Shown here: one piece after another, positions 47,561-64,000 of the stretch | Numbering within the stretch: position 1 is the first letter of the stretch | How the letters are laid out: every line of letters begins with the position of its first letter | Origin: an uncultured bacterium | GTDB lineage: Bacteria > Patescibacteriota > Minisyncoccia > Minisyncoccales > RBG-13-42-11 | Assembly: GCA_963790795.1 (NCBI GenBank) | Contig: CAWBPO010000001.1 | Location: forward strand, 396,073-460,072 | DNA: 64,000 bases | Reading direction: 5' to 3' | Notes under the pieces: model-generated | What the model saw: only the letters and a program-made list of their open reading frames with translations | What the model was told of the DNA's origin: nothing | Database searches by the model: none | Translations under genes and position numbers: made by a program

Positions 47561-48785
47561 TTATTCATATCTTAAAGCTTCAATCGGATTGAGTTTGGCT
47601 GCTTTTTGGGCCGGATAATATCCGAAGACAATTCCTATCAAAGCAGAAACGCCAAAAGCCAAAGCAATAGACCAAATTGAAATGCTGGTGCTGGTATCGC
47701 CGAATTTACTGATTGCAAAAGAAATAATGCAGCCCAAAATAACGCCGATTATTCCGCCGATAAAAGTAAGACTGGTTGCTTCTGAAAGAAACTGCAGACT
47801 GATATCTTTGTTTTTGGCTCCGACCGCCTTGCGAAGGCCGATTTCCTTTGTTCTTTCGGTTACTGTCGTTAACATCATGTTCATAATGCCGATGCCTCCG
47901 ACAAGAAGAGAAATTCCGGCAATCGCTCCCAGTAAAAGAGTCAATGTTCCTGTTACAGAAGACATGGTATTTAAAATATCTGCCTGATTCATTATGGAAA
48001 AATCTGCCGAGGTAGCGTCTGAAATATTATGCCGGTAAAGCAAAAGAGCTGCTAATTTGTTCTTGGGCGATTGACATGTATTTTTCACTTTGAACCTGAA
48101 CGTTAATCGTAGACACAGAATCGCTGCCCGATAAAAAACGCTGGGCAGTAGAAATGGGAATATAAATCCTGTCATCCTGGCTGCCGAATCCAGTGCCGCC
48201 CTTAGCTTCAGAAACGCCAATGACCGTAAAAGTAATTTTATTTATTTTGATTTTTTGCCCTACTGGATTTACGTTTTCTCCAAATAGATCTTCGCTGGTT
48301 GTTGGACCCAAAACTGCCACTTTTGACAAATTTGTTACATCCTGGTCGGAAATAAAAGCGCCCATATCCATTTCAAGATTTTTTACTTGGGTATAAGAAG
48401 AAACCGTGCCGATAACAGAAGTGTTGGTGTTTGTCCCTTTGGCTGTAACTTGGTATCTGCTTGAAACTTCCGGAGCGACAGCTTCAATAAAAGAAATTTC
48501 TGTTTCAATAGCAGAAGCGTCCTCCAAAGTGAGCGTTTGGGCAGAACCGCGGCCCGAACTTACTTGCGTGCCAACACCTCTCTGGAATCCCGGAGAAATC
48601 ATTAATAAATTTGAACCGATGGATTCAATGCTTTCTGTAACTGAGACCTGCGCTCCCTGGCCGATGGAAATCATGGCAACAACCGAACCTACGCCAATGA
48701 CAATGCCTAAAATCGTCAGACTAGACCTGGCTTTGTTGGAAATAATGGCAAAAAATGTTTCTTCAAATAAATCGCTAATAAGCAT
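47561..48785 (-). pseudogene. MacB-type ABC transporter permease (MacB_PCD + FtsX domains), frame interrupted once
   Basis: N-terminal half 48027-48785 and FtsX half (GGIGIMNMMLTTVTERTKEIGLRKAVGA) lie in different frames; junction at about 48035-48052. Confidence 0.8.
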
Positions 48786-55308: not shown

Positions 55309-55977
55309 TTTTTCTTTTTCAACCTTTATATGGTTTGTTATTTCTTTCTGTTGCTCCAGAAAATTAATCCTGCGATAAGAACCAAAGCGATTATCAGCCA
55401 AACCCACCATAAAGAATTGCCTTTCTGAGTTTCTTCAGGAGTTTGTTCGGTAGTTCCCGGTTCTTCTGCAGTCAAAACTTCCTCTTCAGGCTGTATTTCT
55501 TCTGTTCCAGTAGCCTTCTGATTCAGTCTCTTCTCCTAAAACTTCTCCAGTTTTCCCTGTATAACCAATCCAATCTGCTAAAAGATCAGGCATGGGTATG
55601 TTAAGAGAAGGACATTTCAGAAGGTTAATCCATCTTTTAGTTGTTTTATAAACATAGCCTGTAGGAACGTTTTCATCGTTATGCAGTCCGACTTGCACCC
55701 AAGGCCTCAAAACCTGTTCTTTGTAAGCTAATTGGAACTGGTTTACGGCGTTTAAGGTCGCTTCGTCGTAAATGCCGTTTACAGCCAAGTTAGCTCCCAT
55801 GAACTCATTTAAGAACATCTGCAGTTTCATTACTTCTGCCGGGTCATTATTAGCTCCGTATTTGATGTATTGGAGCAGATATATGCCGCAGGTCATGCCT
55901 TCAGTAGTTGTTGCTTCACCTAAAACTCTACCTTGAGTTGCTACATATCCTCCTGGGTATCCTCCCCCTCCTTCTGA

Positions 55978-56169
55978 TTGACAGGTTGCTGAACAACCAT
56001 CACCACTTGTGTTATTACCGTCATCACATTGTTCGCCGCCATTCAGAACTCCGTTTCCGCAAACTGATCCTGTTTGTTCCAGCTGACAGGTTGCAGAACA
56101 ACCATCGCCATTTGCAGTATTACCGTCATCACATTGTTCGCCAATTTCCACAGCTTCATTTCCGCAAAC
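55978..56169 (-). repeat. Two tandem Cys-rich CGNG...CDDGN...DGCS..C repeats (coding)
   Basis: aa 742-770 and 777-805 of ORF 55486-58392 are near-identical. Confidence 0.8.
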
Positions 56170-56496
56170 TGGTCCTCCTTCTGATTCCTGATAATAATTC
56201 AGGAAATACACTTCAGGATCAGGAGTTTCGCCATCAATAGTTGCTGTTTGAGTGCTGGATGCCGGAAAAGAGCGGACCCAATTTTCCGGATTGTCTTCTG
56301 TTATAGAATATTCTCCGTAAGGCAAGCCAGGGTTTGTTACACAGCCAGTGTCTCCATTAGTTGCTGTGTACAAAGTGCCTTGGTCTGGATATATAACCGT
56401 CATCTCCCATGCCAAAGGAGTATCAATACCTTCTTCATACTGGCCGATATTTCCCTTATCTTCATATTTACAAATCGTTAACGAGCCAGTGGTTGG

Positions 56497-56883
56497 TTGA
56501 CAATCTGTATCTGCAGCGTCTGTATATCCATCGCAATCATCATCTAAATCATTGTCGCAGATTTCTGGAATGGGTTGATTGGTTTGTACACATTCTTCCC
56601 AAAAACCATTCTCGCCACAGGTTTGAGTGCCTGCAGAACAAATACCCGAACCACTAGCTTCACAAGATTGAGTTGCTTGGGGTGCACATTGCTGGCAATC
56701 GGTATCTGCGGCATCTGTGTAACCATCACAATCATCGTCTAATTGGTTGTCACAGATTTCTGGAACGGGTTGATTGGTTTGTTGACAACTTCCCCAGAAA
56801 CCTGATTGATCACAGGTTTGAGTGCCTGCAGAACAAATACCTGGTTGACCAGTTTCGCAAGGTTGAATGGCTTCAGGCGTACA
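56497..56883 (-). repeat. Tandem duplication of a 65-aa (195-bp) Cys-rich module (coding)
   Basis: aa 504-567 versus 568-632; DNA blocks about 195 bp apart are visibly near-identical (...GTATCTGC.GC.TCTGT.TA.CCATC.CAATCATC...). Confidence 0.85.
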
Positions 56884-59513
56884 TTCAGGAATTGCATTGT
56901 TCTCACACTGACAAGTATCTAAATTACAAACATCAGCAGTATTTGGATTTTGGTCATCACAATCTGCATCGCTTTCACAATCGCCACATTGATTATCACA
57001 AGTATGAGTTATTGTTTCATCTCCTGTTGAACATATACCATTTGGTTCCTGACATTCAGAGATAAATGAATCTCTGTAATCCCATGTGTAGGGATTACAA
57101 TCTGGATCATAACCACACGTAGTTACTCCAAAGATATTATTACTTGAACAATCTACTAGCGTACCCGGGACACATTGGGCTGTACTACAAGTCTCTTGAC
57201 CATTACAAGCTAAACCATCATTACAGTCCTGAACAACTGTAGTATTTGCAACACACGCATAATTAGTACATACTCCTTCGTCGTGTTTTATTGCAGTTCC
57301 ATCACAGTAATCTTGGTTTAATTTATTACAATCATCATCTGTCTGACATTCTGTACAGGCGGAAGCATTATAAGATATTTCTGGTTCTCCGCAGGAATTA
57401 TTTGTACAAGTACAATCTTCTAGGCAAGTATTACTTACATCGCTGTAAGTGTAGTAATCATTACCCTGACAACCGTTTTGCGTATGGCAAATTGTGTCTG
57501 CGCACAAATGTGTTGCATCACATTGAGCTCCACATTGACCTACGTCGCAAGTGTGAGTTATTGTTTCATCACCAGTGGTACAACTATCGGTGTCTTCGTT
57601 ACATTGACTTTCAAAGATGTTTCTGAAATCCCAAGTAAAGTTGCAATTATCAGGATCATTTAGGCAGGTTGCTATGTCGTTAATATTATTACTTGAACAA
57701 CTTACCGGCGTTCCATCAACGCAAGCACCGCCGACACATGTTTCTTGGCCGTTACAATATAAATAATCGTCACAATCTAAATCGGTGGCACATTCTGGCA
57801 CAGGTGAATTATAGAAAATGCAAGATATGATATTATCAGTTCCAACCTGGACTCCCGTCACGCCATTCTGCGTCGGACTGCCACTGTTAGTGACGCCGCT
57901 ACAGCTAGCGTCAATAAAATAGTAACCACTAACGGTTCCAGTTTCAATAACATCGTAAGTGCCGTTTGACAGTTCTACGGCTGCAGTCTGTCCGTAAATG
58001 TCCGTTATCTCGCCGCTGTAAGTGCCGATGTTAAAAGTCCAGCCAAGTCCGCCGTTAGTCTGATCACCGGTCGTTTGTAAACTGCCATCAGCATCAATTA
58101 TCTTAGTCACAGTAATCGTACCTCCGCAGAGCTGGGTCGCTAATCCTTGAAGTGCAGTGGCTAATTCTCCAAAATTAGCAACGCTGTAATATGCATCTGC
58201 GCTGGAAATAGCTTGCAAATTAGCCGGTACCACATCAGAACCGATACCCAAAGTAATTATGCGGGTGCCGTAACCCTTAATAATGTTAGCTTGGGCTATG
58301 GCTGCATTTAAAGACGCTTGATCAAATCCGTTACCAGGTCCTTGATTGGGATTATATTTATTAGGATTACCGTCAGAAGAAAAAATAATCAAATTTGGAA
58401 CTCATGTTTGCTGATCAAAAGTATTTTGAGATTTGATTAATCCACTTTCCAATTAGTATAGCCACCGCTTGCAATAGCAGAGCTGTCAATAGTAATTTTA
58501 ACCGCATTTGGATCGGAGGTAAATAACTGTCGTACCGTAGCCGTGGTGTCAAAATCTGTCACAGAAAACTGAGTCGGCGTTACCGACACAGTATCCACAA
58601 ATCCTTTGAAAGCGTTCTTCATCTGGGTAAGCTCGGTGCTACTAATACTACCAGAGCTATCCAAAACCAAAGCAACGTCTAAACCGCAGGATTGACCCAG
58701 TTGCGGATTTTGGATAGGTTCAGTGTAGTAGACTTTCGCTCGCAAATGATCCAAAGAGACCGTTGAGTTGTCGCATGAACCACTTGATACGTCATCATAA
58801 GAAACTCTGGCTACAAAGTTAGCATTAGTAAATTCGCCCGCTGACCAAGTTCTGCTCCACGTATCTGAATTACTACCCAATGTATAAACAACATCGCTTC
58901 CGCTCATACCGGCTGTTTTCATGCCAGTGTAAGTTGAACCGTTATTCCACGAAAGCGCCACTTCAATCCGGAAACCGCTCGTATCTGAAGATTTAGCTTC
59001 TGCAGTCACTTCAATACCATTAATTGTTGAGCTGACGGGAATAACAGGAAAGCCAAAGTTAGAATATCCTTGCTCAGCGCTTTCAGAATTCGCTGTCGCG
59101 TATTGATCGTTGCTAGAGAATGCGTTAGTCGCACTACTCCATCCGTTTGGAGAATGAGTGCTAGTGGGCGAATAAAATCCCGTATCTGCCGCAAAAGCTG
59201 TTTGCGGAGTCAACATTAAAATCGGCATTGCTATATAACCGACCATTGCCGCAATCATAAACCATGAGTTTGCGGTTTTTAAAACTTTGAATTTTTTTAC
59301 TTATCATATATTTTTTTTGTTAATTATCGTTGAACGACTATTCAACGTTAAATTAATAATACGATTAATTAAAACGATAAAAAAACCACCATTCTAATTT
59401 CCTTTTGAAAATTAGGATACTAGTTTTGAAAAATTACCTCCTATATAATCTTTCGCAACGTATAAACGTGTCTAATTCAAAATAACACACCGATAATCCT
59501 TGTCAAGTTTCTC

Positions 59514-60780
59514 CTATTTCCCCTTTATTCTTCCAACAAATAAAGAGACAAGGAACAAAACTATATCAACGATAATTAAAATCCAGCAGATATTACAGCA
59601 AAATAAACCTCCGCAACCTGAGCAACAGAAAATGCAGTAAATAGCAATTAAAATAGCTATAATTAAGGGTGCAATCCATTTTATTTTCTTTTTCTCATCT
59701 TTCCTTACTATTGATAACAAATACAAGGCAAGTAAAAGAATTATGACAATGAGTAAAGCCAAACAGAGATTATTCTGAAAATATTTTCTACACTTGTCAT
59801 TAATCCTTTAACTTCAGCTGGTATTGCTCCTTGCAAGGCTGCTTCTGTTTCTTCTCCAAGCACTCCGCTGCTTTCTGCTCCACCTGAAACACCTTCTGGC
59901 AAAGTGGTTGCTCCTGCCACTCCAGTTGTAGTGAAGTTAAGTTCCTGACTGATTGCCAAAGAACCACGTGATACACATCTGAAAAAATAAGTGGTTCCAG
60001 GAGTTAAACCGTAAATAGTAACTGAATGATTAACAACTTTAGAAGATGTATCAGTCTCTGGAGTTGCATGAGCATAGCCGTACAAAGGAGCATCATTGAA
60101 ATCGAAGATATGCGATTCTCCTGTTGCACTATAAATCACTTGGCTGGAAGCAGGATAAGGAATGTCGGTTGAACCAACCTTAGTTTTCCAGGTTATAGTG
60201 GCAAAGGTATCTCCACTGTTTAAGATTGTTTCTTCATAAATAACCAAATTAGTTCCTCCTCCAGCTCCAGCTCCTAAGGTTTGGCCTGGTCGAGGAATCG
60301 GCAAATCACCTTGAAAGCCAATTTGAATATCAAAACCCACTCTTTTTGTTTGATAAGGGTTATCAGTTAAAGGATCAAAATTAACTTCAAAATCGTATTG
60401 AGTTTGAGCTCCGTTAGCTAAATTAGAAAGATAGACTTCACCAGCTGCTAAGAATTCAGCTAATGTTCCGGTATATAGAGTATTAATTCCTTGTTTAATA
60501 TTTAAACTTAATTTAGAACCAAGATTATCAGGATCACTGATGTTTACTGCCTTAGTGGCAATCGGCATATCGTAACCCCTATTGTTCGTTGCTTTTACCC
60601 AGCGATTGATCGTGTCTCCTGGCATAATGTTTGATTCATTGAACAAAGGTGTTTGTTCAAACTGAACTGATAAATTAGCATTAGCAGAAGTTTCAGGCAC
60701 AGCAAAAAATCCCACACCGATTAATGCGATAGATACTGTTAAAATTTTATAATTATGGGGGTTTTAAATAATTTATTCAT
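59514..60780 (-). pseudogene. TasA/camelysin (peptidase M73)-like domain + fibronectin-III-like domain + Cys-rich TM anchor; two frame interruptions
   Basis: Signal peptide ...IALIGVGFFAVPETSANA. Family patterns NIMPGDTINRWVKATNNRG and DNPYQTKRVGFDIQIGFQ. Fn3-like ITWKT...VTIYGLTPGTTYFFRC. Shift in a C5 run at about 60750 and another at about 59750. Confidence 0.6.
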
Positions 60781-60781
60781 A

Positions 60782-63700
60782 TTATTGGCTTACACTTTCT
60801 TCTAAAATTGCTGCGCTTTCTAATTCTGCTGGAGCTGTACTGTCGCTAATAGCACTGTCAGTAGAATTACTAATTTCAGCTTCGCTACTTTTTGGAATAT
60901 CACCTTCAGGATTCTCGATTGTATTATCTTCAGGTACAGCAATTACTTCAGTTTCAGAGCCGGGGGATTTTCAATGGTTCAATAATTGGAATTTTTCTTC
61001 AATAATTGGTTGTTCTTCAATAACGGAGCTTCACGTTTCCTGGTTATTTCTTCGATTATTGGTTCTTCGATGGATGGTACAGTTTCCGGGAATATTTCTT
61101 CAACTATCCATCTATTATTTCGTTTAATATCTCATCAATTATTCCCTTCTTCTTGATATGGTTCGGGGATAACTTCTTCTTCAATAAGATATTCTTCTTC
61201 AATAATTTTTGGTTCCTCAAATTTCTTCCACATAAGGAACAACAAACATATTATTTGGTTTTCCTGGTGTTGGTTCTGGATCAACCCAGTTTTCCGTGCC
61301 GTCGGGTATGCGGGCAAAAGATTTATTTTCAGGAGCTCCGCCTGCGTAATCATAATCATGAAAATCAACTAATGTTCGGTTGAGATTTGGTCGTCATAGA
61401 GTCTTACGGTATCTGAAGTATTATCTAAATCAAAGTCAGCATCGCCGTCACGATAAACCACGAAATAGCCGCCAGCAGGAATAGTAGTTCCTCCGGTATT
61501 GGTATTGGCTGAAGTAATTAAAAGTTCATGAGTATTTTCTGCATCGTATAAAGCCCAGCCGTTAACATCTACTGTAGTATTTGTACCGTTATATAGTTCA
61601 ACCCATTCGCCGTCATGCGGCTCGCCAATATTTCCAGTTTCACCAGAAATAGAATAATAAACATTCGCCCTTAACCAATCTAGATTAGTTGTTGCTCCAC
61701 CAGTACAGGAATGAACACGAGCTCGGAAAGCAGAATTGATTTCTGCAAGCGTCCAAGCATGTTCCACAAATCGGAAGCTGTGCCCAAGGTGTAAGTTGTT
61801 TGAGCCCCTGTAAGCGTTTGTGTTTTTTCCGGACTTGTCCAACTCGTCCCACCATTCCAAGATAAATCTACACCAAGCTCACAAGCGGAACAGGGCTGTT
61901 CACTGGAAACTGAAACGCCGTCAATGCGGAAATTTTCATCTGAAGCGCTAACATCAGTATTCCTAAATCTGATACTGAAAGTAGAATTATTCAAACTAGC
62001 GGGTAAACCAATTGTTTGAAGCGAACTCCAAGAAGACGAATTTGTATCATTATCATCAAGTTCGTAACTTACAAGAGTTACAAGACCCGCAGGAGAATCG
62101 CATGAGCCTCCGGTATAATACTGAACGTCACCCACTTCTCCGTTTTCAGCATCGCTATCGCCTCTCCAATAATACTGTAAAAAAAGATTACTTAGTTCTG
62201 TGGCATTTACGGAACGACAAATCCACTCATTCTCACCAATAAAGGCAAATCTCTCGCCATCGGGGCTTGCACTATCATCCCCGCTTCCGGCTATTTGGGC
62301 ACGGGTTGAAGAATCGCCATCATCGCCTTGCTCTTCCCAATTAGGAATATCATTAGAATTACTACCACTTGTACCAAAATTATCAGACCAAATATTTGAT
62401 AAAGGTGCGGCTGACCATGCATCCGCGCTAACTTCAATTCCGTCGATCATCGCCGAACTTGGAATGTTGAATCCAAAATTATAATATTGGTGTTTATCGC
62501 TTTGATTATCCGTAGCCGGAGGACTACCACCGTCAGTATAAGCATTACCCGCATTATTCCACCCATCGCCAGTCCCAATTGCGTTAGCGGTTGGAGAAAT
62601 AACTCCTGTGTTGTAAGGACCAGCAGGAATTGTGTAATAAACCTTTATTTGTGCTTGGTCAACATATGTTGTACCACTACAATCGCCACCCGGATCAATA
62701 TCCTCTAAACGCATAACGAAATTCGCGTCGGAAAATTCTGTTATTAACCAAGAATGACCCCACAAATCACTAGAGGGAACCAAGTGTATATATAGTATCT
62801 GATCCGCTTAGATTTTGTTTTGTGTTGCGTAAGAAGAACCGTTATTCCAAGAAAGATTGACGCCCACTTGGCATCCGGGAAGGATCGGAGGAGCGTGTTT
62901 CAATCTGCACCTCCAAGCCATTAATTATAGCACTAGTAGGAATACCAAATCCGAAAATGGGAATAACCCTGCTGATCCTCGTCGTTATCGTTTACATAAC
63001 TATCATTGCTTGTTTGGATATTACCAACTGTTCTAGTATCCCAATCGTTTGGTGAGTGGATAGATGTAGGAACTTCAAATCCACTATCTCCACCAATTCC
63101 CGTATCCGGAACATTCGGGACGAATTCGTTGATTACCACCCGATTTAAATCTATAAATTGCGGACCGCAAGCGGCTTCCGAAGGAAGCGTACCATCGGTA
63201 CTTGTCGCCTCCCAAGTAATTGTTTGTCCGGCAATAACCCAATGAACATTTATGCTCATATGATCAACGGAAACGTATCTGAACCCTGCTGATCGTGCTC
63301 TGCCGCAAATACAGCACCGAAGTTAGTGCTTATTTATATCAGAAGGAGACCATGTGGTGCCCCAAGTATCACCAGATCCGCCATAAATTACAGGCGTTTC
63401 TGCGGTTCCCCATTGATCCCCAATCGCCTTGTCATCTCCCACTATTCCACTGTTTTCTCTTAACTTAACAATGTTATCTCTTACTTCGTCATAGTGAGTT
63501 ACTTTCCTTTCAACACGCAATTCTATACCGTAATGGTTGCTTCAGTGGATACATTAAAAGCAAAACCAGTTGTTTGGAGATAATCACTGTGTCCACTACT
63601 GCCAATATTTACTGTCGCATAGCTATCATCTGAATGCATACGTATTGGCAAGAGATGACCAACTAACGCCACTGCTGTTATCAACGTTCGCACTCGCGCT

Positions 63701-64000
63701 CGGTGACAAGAAGCCTGTATCTCCTAAACTTCCAGTTCGTTGTAACGTAAGCGTCTAAAACCGTTCGATTATCGCCAATATGTATGTTTCCGTTTACGGC
63801 AAATAAGACTGCGTCGCCAAGATTGCCGTTTAGAGCCGGTACCGTCAAGAATGTCAATCACGGTAGAGCCAGCTGGCGCATTGGAAACCAATAATATTGC
63901 TCCTTCAGTAGGACCGTCAGCGCCAGCGCCGTCAAACGTAACATTATCGGCAATAGTAATTGTTCCATCAACGATTATTGCCGCAAAATTATCGCCAAAA
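60782..64000 (-). pseudogene. 3' part of a giant surface protein (5' end outside window), many frame interruptions. Contains beta-helix-like repeats, at least 3 copies of the uncharacterised beta-domain, a lamin-tail domain and an acidic EEPII-type repeat tail
   Basis: LTD: EWVELYNGTNTTVDVNGWALYD...IPAGGYFVVYRDGDADFDLDNTSDTVRLYDD...SFARIPDGTENWVDPEPTPGKPN (needs a shift near 61380). Domain repeats have conserved NFGF..IP....I.GIEV, LSWNGG, YTLG...D.WG..W, KVYYT. Stop at 60782-60784, 1 nt before the next ATG. Confidence 0.6.

Follow-up and report, generated by a model that had tools for sequence, protein, structure and literature searches.

We analyzed a 64,000-nucleotide stretch of DNA (the window) from an uncultured bacterium of the Patescibacteriota, within the candidate phyla radiation (CPR; GenBank assembly GCA_963790795.1, contig CAWBPO010000001.1). 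At one end of the window, two genes for large surface proteins share a repeated protein domain. Between 55.5 and 64.0 kb, all coding sequence lies on the minus strand and forms three successive genes. Gene 1 (55486..59307, delimited by frame analysis) encodes, in order, a signal peptide, one copy of the repeated domain (copy A), a VWA domain (Pfam, E = 1.2e-05), a SpaA-like region, Cys-rich repeats with matches to DUF4215 and myxo_disulf_rpt, a PG_binding_1 region, and a terminal GEVLGEETE motif; the Pfam matches to SpaA and PG_binding_1 are sub-threshold. Its VWA domain contains the sequence DSSGS, which fits the DxSxS pattern of a metal-ion-dependent adhesion site (MIDAS). Copy A sits directly behind a predicted Sec-type signal-peptide cleavage site (AFA|ADTGF). 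A database protein that is 58% identical to copy A (P0012) has the same arrangement of signal peptide, domain, and start of a VWA domain, and the layout of gene 1 is thus conserved outside this locus.

Gene 2 enters at the window end (64000) and runs to ~60.8 kb. Its first visible part (63725..64000) is rich in G, D, and N, has no Pfam or NCBIfam match, and continues past the window. Three tandem copies of the domain follow, in the order D, B, C, and then a lamin tail domain (LTD; approximately 61330..61615; Pfam PF00932, E = 2.2e-14; frameshift at ~61372) and an acidic, low-complexity tail. The gene between genes 1 and 2 (~60.79 to 59.51 kb; open reading frame [ORF] 59741-60715) encodes an fn3/Pur_ac_phosph_N-like domain (E = 2.1e-09) behind a beta-rich N-terminal region with no family match. 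Assignment of this ORF to TasA/camelysin was considered from its sequence and found no Pfam support.

We find that the repeated block is a genuine domain of ~158 residues, all-beta in character. To build a profile hidden Markov model (HMM), copy A was combined with 119 database homologues, and copies B, C, and D were left out; the profile was then searched against every stop-to-stop stretch in all six reading frames of the window. Matches were confined to the minus strand at 58716-63721 and resolve into exactly four copies, each a set of matches collinear with the profile. Copy A (58716..59189, 158 amino acids) lies in a single reading frame and matches profile positions 1-158 (E = 1.4e-52). 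Copy B (62628..63091) is spread over five frame pieces, with HMM matches at 63088-62951, 62955-62884, 62876-62817, 62826-62776, and 62774-62628 (profile 2-48, 47-70, 74-93, 93-109, and 110-157, respectively; 2-157 overall). Copy C (62621-61639) is split after profile position ~70. Its N-terminal half (62409..62621; HMM match 62612-62406, profile 2-70, E = 4.9e-17) ends in ...IDGIEVSADAWSA, and its C-terminal half (61639..61892) runs from CSACELGVDLSWNGG to NVYYSISGE, with HMM pieces at 61928-61761 and 61821-61651 (profile 56-115 and 96-156). Copy D (63239..63724), also in five frame pieces, is the most divergent copy and does not have the LSWNGG motif; it matches at 63721-63638, 63636-63532, 63529-63332, and 63295-63239 (profile 2-25, 26-57, 59-124, and 137-155), and its last strand, VSVDHMSINVHW, reaches 63239.

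After stitching, identity to copy A is 50% for copy B, 41% for copy C (insert removed), and 30% for copy D. The original prediction, made from the letters of the window, was of a recurrent block in at least four copies, shared between the VWA gene and a neighboring large gene. Both points are borne out, and the predicted positions agree to within a few tens of bases except for copy D, which runs ~90 bases further than predicted (to 63239, not 63330). Gene 2 leaves the window at 64000, so further copies may lie beyond it.

Reading copies B, C, and D as continuous domains involves frame repair at nine single-base frameshifts: four in B, one in C, and four in D. Repair does not dissolve the repeats, an outcome the original prediction had allowed for; it makes them complete, and the stitched copies fit the family profile end to end. 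At the junctions, each break is a 1-nucleotide insertion or deletion (indel) in a homopolymer of two to four nucleotides, for example CATTTTCGG, TTCCCGGA, or the missing G in TGG(G)AA. The four in copy B fall in TTTT, CCC, AAAA, and CCC runs, and that in copy C, at ~61764, is a missing G. The frame of gene 1 is broken near 59270 and near 58400-58440, and the signal peptide of the middle gene is restored only via frame repair near 60760. All three surface-protein genes are thus affected, both signal peptides included. Only one in-frame stop, a TGA near 58.41 kb, occurs within the broken region, and no larger deletions were seen there.

These breaks raise the question of whether the copies in gene 2, and possibly that in gene 1, are functionless relics in decaying pseudogenes, real as repeats but dead. 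The uneven distribution of the breaks is in line with decay: at least 17 lie within 58.4-64.0 kb, versus about one candidate, a MacB split near 48.1 kb, in the other 58 kb. Their nature is not. All are 1-nucleotide indels in short homopolymers, there is a single stop and no larger deletion, and the stitched copies match the profile from end to end, which is the pattern of indel-type consensus errors. Similar damage affects a housekeeping gene of a related public contig (L005), in which ribonucleotide reductase is split into four called pieces (L005 1-1831). Together, the restriction of indels to homopolymers, the near absence of stops, the intact profile matches, and the damaged ribonucleotide reductase point to consensus errors. 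We therefore regard pseudogene decay as quite improbable; the breaks at 58400-64000 have the look of consensus errors of the indel type, in an island that is poorly polished or variable among strains. A metagenome scan found only one relative, 39% identical, and no intact near-identical copy.

The candidate break outside the island lies at 47561-48785 on the minus strand, where the MacB_PCD and FtsX portions of a single MacB-type ABC permease fall in two overlapping ORFs, probably through one further frameshift. Upstream of this permease are genes of the HlyD-like (49.5-51.2 kb) and ABC ATPase (48.8-49.5 kb) types. At 26.0-26.2 kb, what seemed to be an overlap was rejected as a frame break, as it represents two genes, FtsW and a Mur ligase.

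The surface-protein cluster is an accessory, lineage-specific island. A RarA-like gene beside gene 1 is 82% identical to a gene in a Candidatus Paceibacterota metagenome-assembled genome, and most of its top matches are from Patescibacteria. Among 80 relatives (Patescibacteria and others), none has either the repeated domain or the domain inserted in copy C within 10 kb of the RarA-like gene. Two adjacent genes of the cluster (ends at 59765-59900 and 55338-55560, minus strand) share the end motif G(E)VLGEETE, behind which, past a frame break, lie a hydrophobic helix and a basic tail (RKDEKKK or SNRKK). These ends look like a shared C-terminal sorting or anchoring signal, to which no known sortase or exosortase class is assigned.

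AlphaFold2 modeling of copy A with a 120-sequence alignment gave a confident beta jelly-roll of ten strands and one short helix (predicted local distance difference test [pLDDT] 96.1; predicted TM-score [pTM] 0.91). The best Foldseek matches in the Protein Data Bank (PDB) are carbohydrate-binding modules (CBMs) of families CBM36, CBM16, CBM4, and CBM32, together with Cry toxin, Kex2/furin, and APC10. Probabilities for these matches are 1.0, but E values are 1e-4 to 1e-3, TM-scores relative to the query (TMq) 0.33-0.52, and root-mean-square deviations 5-12 Å. The model thus supports a galactose-binding-domain-like or CBM-like jelly-roll; the likeness goes as far as fold class, and no solved structure is a close relative. 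Matches to predicted viral structures in BFVD are far better (TMq 0.64-0.81) and comprise uncharacterized Caudovirales proteins of 170-230 amino acids and parts of large proteins, among which is the tail protein of Methanobacterium virus Drs3. Annotations of tail fiber, BppU, or baseplate appear on some BFVD matches of lower TMq (0.38-0.48).

One motif invites comparison with the Asp-box, which has the consensus S-x-D-x-G-x-T-W and is placed on a beta-hairpin. The Asp-box positions S1, D/N3, G5, and an aromatic residue at position 8 all have counterparts in the family consensus, LSW(D/N)GGxx(Y/W)T, although copy D and several other members lack the motif. In the model, the LSWxGG-type motif follows the strand at residues 73-80 and leads into a 10-residue non-strand stretch (DSSP), not a tight hairpin.

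The domain belongs to a very large family that is named by no domain library. None of the four window copies has a Pfam match at E ≤ 1, and among 120 members scanned singly, no Pfam family recurs above threshold on the domain; the top sub-threshold matches are Mo-co_dimer (8 of 120, E = 0.004) and F5_F8_type_C (3 of 120). Scans of NCBIfam and PHROGs with a window copy and eight homologues per library gave no relevant match. Searched against PDB sequences, the family profile has no match at E ≤ 1. A single-sequence phmmer search of the PDB returned many near-identical mouse IgG2a CH1 chains (E ~2e-3 to 1e-2). We take this match to arise by chance over the pattern SWN.GS...YTL, because the family profile recovers nothing there. 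Literature searches found no description of the domain. The original prediction that the block cannot be assigned to a family therefore stands: profile and structure searches place it in no well-described family, and return only loose fold matches to solved structures (TMq ≤ 0.52).

A word-indexed profile search recovered 633 proteins. When 1.84 billion representatives were searched exhaustively with the profile, 19,270 matched at E ≤ 1e-3, 14,092 at E ≤ 1e-10, and 2,694 at E ≤ 1e-30, counted as cluster representatives at 50% identity. Named sources include Saccharibacteria, Clostridia, Bipolaricaulota, Manganitrophus, and Asgard archaea (Hodarchaeales, Promethearchaeota), in which some members are giant proteins. 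Residues T3, G4, E60, W111, W115, and D147 are conserved in at least 90% of 120 members, and the motifs DTGF (N-terminal), IPxGATIxGIEV, LSWxGG, DxWGRxW, and VKVYYT characterize the family. "New" here means uncurated, not rare. Although it has no name, the family is widespread and its kind is familiar: it adds another binding or scaffold module to the known jelly-rolls and is not a new kind of biology. The ~19,000 representatives with no Pfam, NCBIfam, PHROGs, or PDB coverage nevertheless constitute a sizeable annotation gap, which touches giant surface proteins of CPR bacteria and Asgard archaea as well as phage tail modules. With the family named and the structure of one member solved, thousands of proteins now listed as "hypothetical" would gain an annotation, and likely episymbiont adhesins and likely host-recognition parts of uncultured phages would be flagged.

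Copy C is interrupted by a second domain. Its profile match stops at position ~70 and resumes 172 residues on, which agrees with the nested insertion in the original prediction in all but length (172 amino acids, not ~190). The insert (61893..62408, minus strand) was recovered in the window by its own HMM at E = 3.3e-80. It is 46-60% identical to the C-terminal domains of otherwise different proteins (P0122-P0131), with 28 invariant alignment columns that include a Cys pair. Modeled alone, it forms an all-beta fold of ten strands (pLDDT 86, pTM 0.87), and its Foldseek matches are CBM, gingipain cleaved-adhesin, ephrin-receptor ligand-binding domain (Eph-LBD), meprin (MAM-containing), and reelin structures (TMq 0.5-0.63).

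In seven of the related proteins (P0122-P0128), the insert domain ends a chain composed of a pilin-like helix and a Pro-rich linker; it also ends a protein with a camelysin-like signal peptide and SpaA_2 (P0131) and a VWA protein (P0130). Another protein (P0187) joins a TasA-like N-terminus, two plain copies of the repeated domain, the insert domain un-nested, and an LTD, the same order of parts as in gene 2 of the window (D, B, C with insert, LTD). The insert thus occurs separately in unrelated architectures and has an autonomous predicted fold. It is, as had been predicted, an independent jelly-roll, and a mobile module that pilin-like, TasA-like, and VWA proteins carry at their C-terminal ends. 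Homology between host domain and insert is not claimed. With trimmed alignments, hhalign finds only a weak local match over the last two strands (probability 26%), and the strong untrimmed match merely reflects the C-terminal half of the host domain carried by P0129.

The nesting is conserved and not a local accident. In the model, a hairpin loop (copy A residues 68-72) joins the strands at 55-67 and 73-80, the longest two, and this loop is the insertion point. The same insert occupies the same loop in at least five other proteins: P0129, encoded on L005, where the order is N-terminal half, insert, C-terminal half, and then a plain copy; and four proteins found among the 150 best representatives (P0201, P0148, P0203, and P0200). 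Different inserts interrupt the same loop in seven further proteins. Six of these (P0198, P0204, P0176, P0259, P0157, and P0194) carry a different insert of ~140-155 amino acids at profile ~72-77, one of them twice, while the seventh (P0190) has a third kind of 205 amino acids. Motifs of the ~140-155-residue insert (Y..W...DE.G.P.C and SSIP.GSTI..V.VT) are faintly like the host domain itself. The recurrence of the same and of different inserts in one loop indicates that the loop is a general domain-grafting site of the family, and a loop that repeatedly accepts whole-domain insertions is a natural example useful for protein engineering.

Family members occur in both phage and cellular settings. 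Among the best matches, roughly one in two is a standalone protein of ~170 amino acids that starts M-ADTGF, with the motif at residue 2. Such genes lie in a phage structural module downstream of a capsid gene (L001), and at two other loci (L002 and L003) the standalone gene sits between a Collar tail-fiber gene and an Amidase_2 endolysin gene. In a podovirus (L006), the domain forms the N-terminal 162 amino acids of a 753-residue "tail tubular protein A" (local HMM E = 1.3e-36). Searches of GenBank phages by tblastn gave no match for one standalone protein (P0082), and one weak match for copy A that was later confirmed by HMM. Two standalone members of the M-ADTG type (P0005 and P0048) have short C-terminal KINIGD(T/A)WK repeats behind the domain.

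In cellular members, signal peptides are cleaved just before ADTGF. Their fusion partners include VWA, dockerin, a type IX secretion system (T9SS) sorting tail, a PETase-like hydrolase, PA14, TIG/He_PIG/RHS, Big_13, LamG/DUF2341, and LTD, all of which are extracellular or typical of appended binding modules. The idea of a new surface-protein module thus holds insofar as the family is uncurated and extracellular; it needs amending in that the family is not rare, its fold is common, and many members are genes of phage tail modules.

We consider it reasonably likely that the domain serves in adhesion by binding a ligand, probably a cell-envelope glycan. We infer ligand binding, and the ligand, because of the CBM-like fusions, the terminal positions of the domain, the residues conserved in at least 90% of members, and a parallel with modular pilins. 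At this locus, the domain caps the N-terminus of a secreted VWA protein and forms a triple array (D-B-C) before the lamin tail domain in the neighboring secreted protein. Greater avidity or a second specificity would come from the tandem copies and from the nested second domain. In phages, the same module, carried on tail proteins or next to them, would attach to cell surfaces, and in a CPR bacterium, tiny and of episymbiotic type, the domain would serve attachment to the host cell.

Several observations weigh against an adhesive role. No ligand-binding site was identified in the domain, and the family has no experimentally studied member. Solved CBMs are resembled only in general fold (TMq 0.33-0.52, 8-18% identity). 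The AlphaFold2 models cover copy A alone and the insert alone, with the whole nested copy outside them. The reading frame of gene 2, which contains three of the four window copies, is broken, and these copies may not be expressed as written. Moreover, where beta-sandwich domains occur in surface proteins and phage tails, they often serve only as spacers or in assembly.

A passive role as spacer or stalk would make the domain equivalent to Ig or fn3 repeats, holding VWA, LTD, or tail parts off the surface with no ligand of its own. Such a role fits the generic beta-sandwich fold, the long tandem arrays of some members (up to 10-11 copies per protein), and the want of an identified binding site. 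Yet the domain is often found at the extreme N- or C-terminus of a protein, or as a standalone ~170-residue phage gene, which is unusual for a spacer. It also occurs as a single fusion to secreted hydrolases (PETase-like), as CBMs do, and polar and aromatic residues (E60, W111, W115, and D147) are among those conserved in at least 90% of 120 members. We therefore judge a purely structural spacer to be unlikely.

The neighborhoods of some members suggest another function, in the assembly or oligomerization of fibers, with the domain acting, for example, as a trimerizing tail-fiber knob or as a docking element for TasA-like or pilus subunits. In phages, it adjoins tail-fiber and tail genes. On L005, the nested unit stands behind a VWA segment, and the gene is in an operon with T2SSE, T2SSF, and N_methyl pilin genes. 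At a third kind of locus (L004 8855-13340; ena:ERZ25039477:contig_1315, a 2.66-Mb genome), two proteins (P0070 and P0087) both end in the domain; interspersed with their genes are two of the Peptidase_M73 type (TasA/camelysin-like) and one for a SipW-like signal peptidase, and prophage head genes are adjacent. This arrangement hints at a link to TasA-type fiber operons. Weak Foldseek matches to a TNF-like lectin and to the C-terminal domain of Bd2734 point in the same direction, but matches to trimeric knobs reach a TMq of only ~0.3, and tandem internal repeats and fusions to soluble enzymes are unfit for an obligate oligomerization knob. An assembly function is accordingly very unlikely in our view, and a ligand-binding adhesion module remains the reading we prefer.

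More broadly, the domain might be a so far unrecognized receptor-binding jelly-roll distributed across domains of life, one that has passed between tailed viruses and the surface or pilus adhesins of the organisms they infect (CPR bacteria, Asgard and methanogenic archaea, and others), with the hairpin loop at residues ~68-77 evolved as a "socket" that repeatedly receives other binding domains and so gives rise to new specificities. We offer this as a tentative possibility, toward which we lean less than toward adhesion itself. If true, the domain would be a modular specificity platform with a role comparable to that of the heads of phage receptor-binding proteins (RBPs).

Among known systems, CBM4, CBM16, CBM32, and CBM36 provide the closest solved structures for the host domain. 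Like them, it is an all-beta jelly-roll of similar size, and is appended to secreted enzymes and dockerin proteins. However, it has no sequence relationship with these CBMs, its TMq to them is only 0.4-0.5, no sugar-binding or Ca2+ site was identified in it, and its characteristic motifs are unique to the family.

The "modular pilin" concept of adhesins, in which VWA or lectin modules are grafted onto pilins for adhesion, is exemplified by PilB and PilC of S. sanguinis (PMC8179133). CPR homologues resemble such type IV pilins. Four intact ones (P0201, P0148, P0203, and P0200) combine a pilin-like N-terminal helix (RGF(I/M)AL...), in some cases SpaA_2, a VWA domain, the nested composite, and a plain copy, thereby joining a pilin-like helix, VWA, and grafted beta-sandwich modules; in addition, CPR homologues occur in the T2SSE/T2SSF/pilin operon. 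In contrast, the VWA gene of the window encodes a Sec-type signal peptide (AFA|ADTGF) and no prepilin leader. Gene 1 therefore has no class III signal peptide or pilin helix, while the N-terminus of gene 2 is outside the window, and no pilus genes were seen in the window next to the VWA gene.

For the insert alone, the nearest structures are the gingipain cleaved-adhesin, MAM, and Eph-LBD domains (TMq 0.53-0.63, probability 1.0). These are extracellular binding domains of similar size, although the insert is only 7-14% identical to them and has no Pfam or NCBIfam match.

CBM-type modules also decorate phage tail and baseplate proteins, for example as insertions in the "evolved" Dit of lactococcal phages. 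The family described here resembles these modules in being a jelly-roll on or beside tail proteins, and in the insertion of one domain into a loop of another. It differs in that PHROGs contains no match for the domain and GenBank phages yield one weak tblastn match. It differs also in the direction of nesting: here, the module is the host of the insertion and not the guest.

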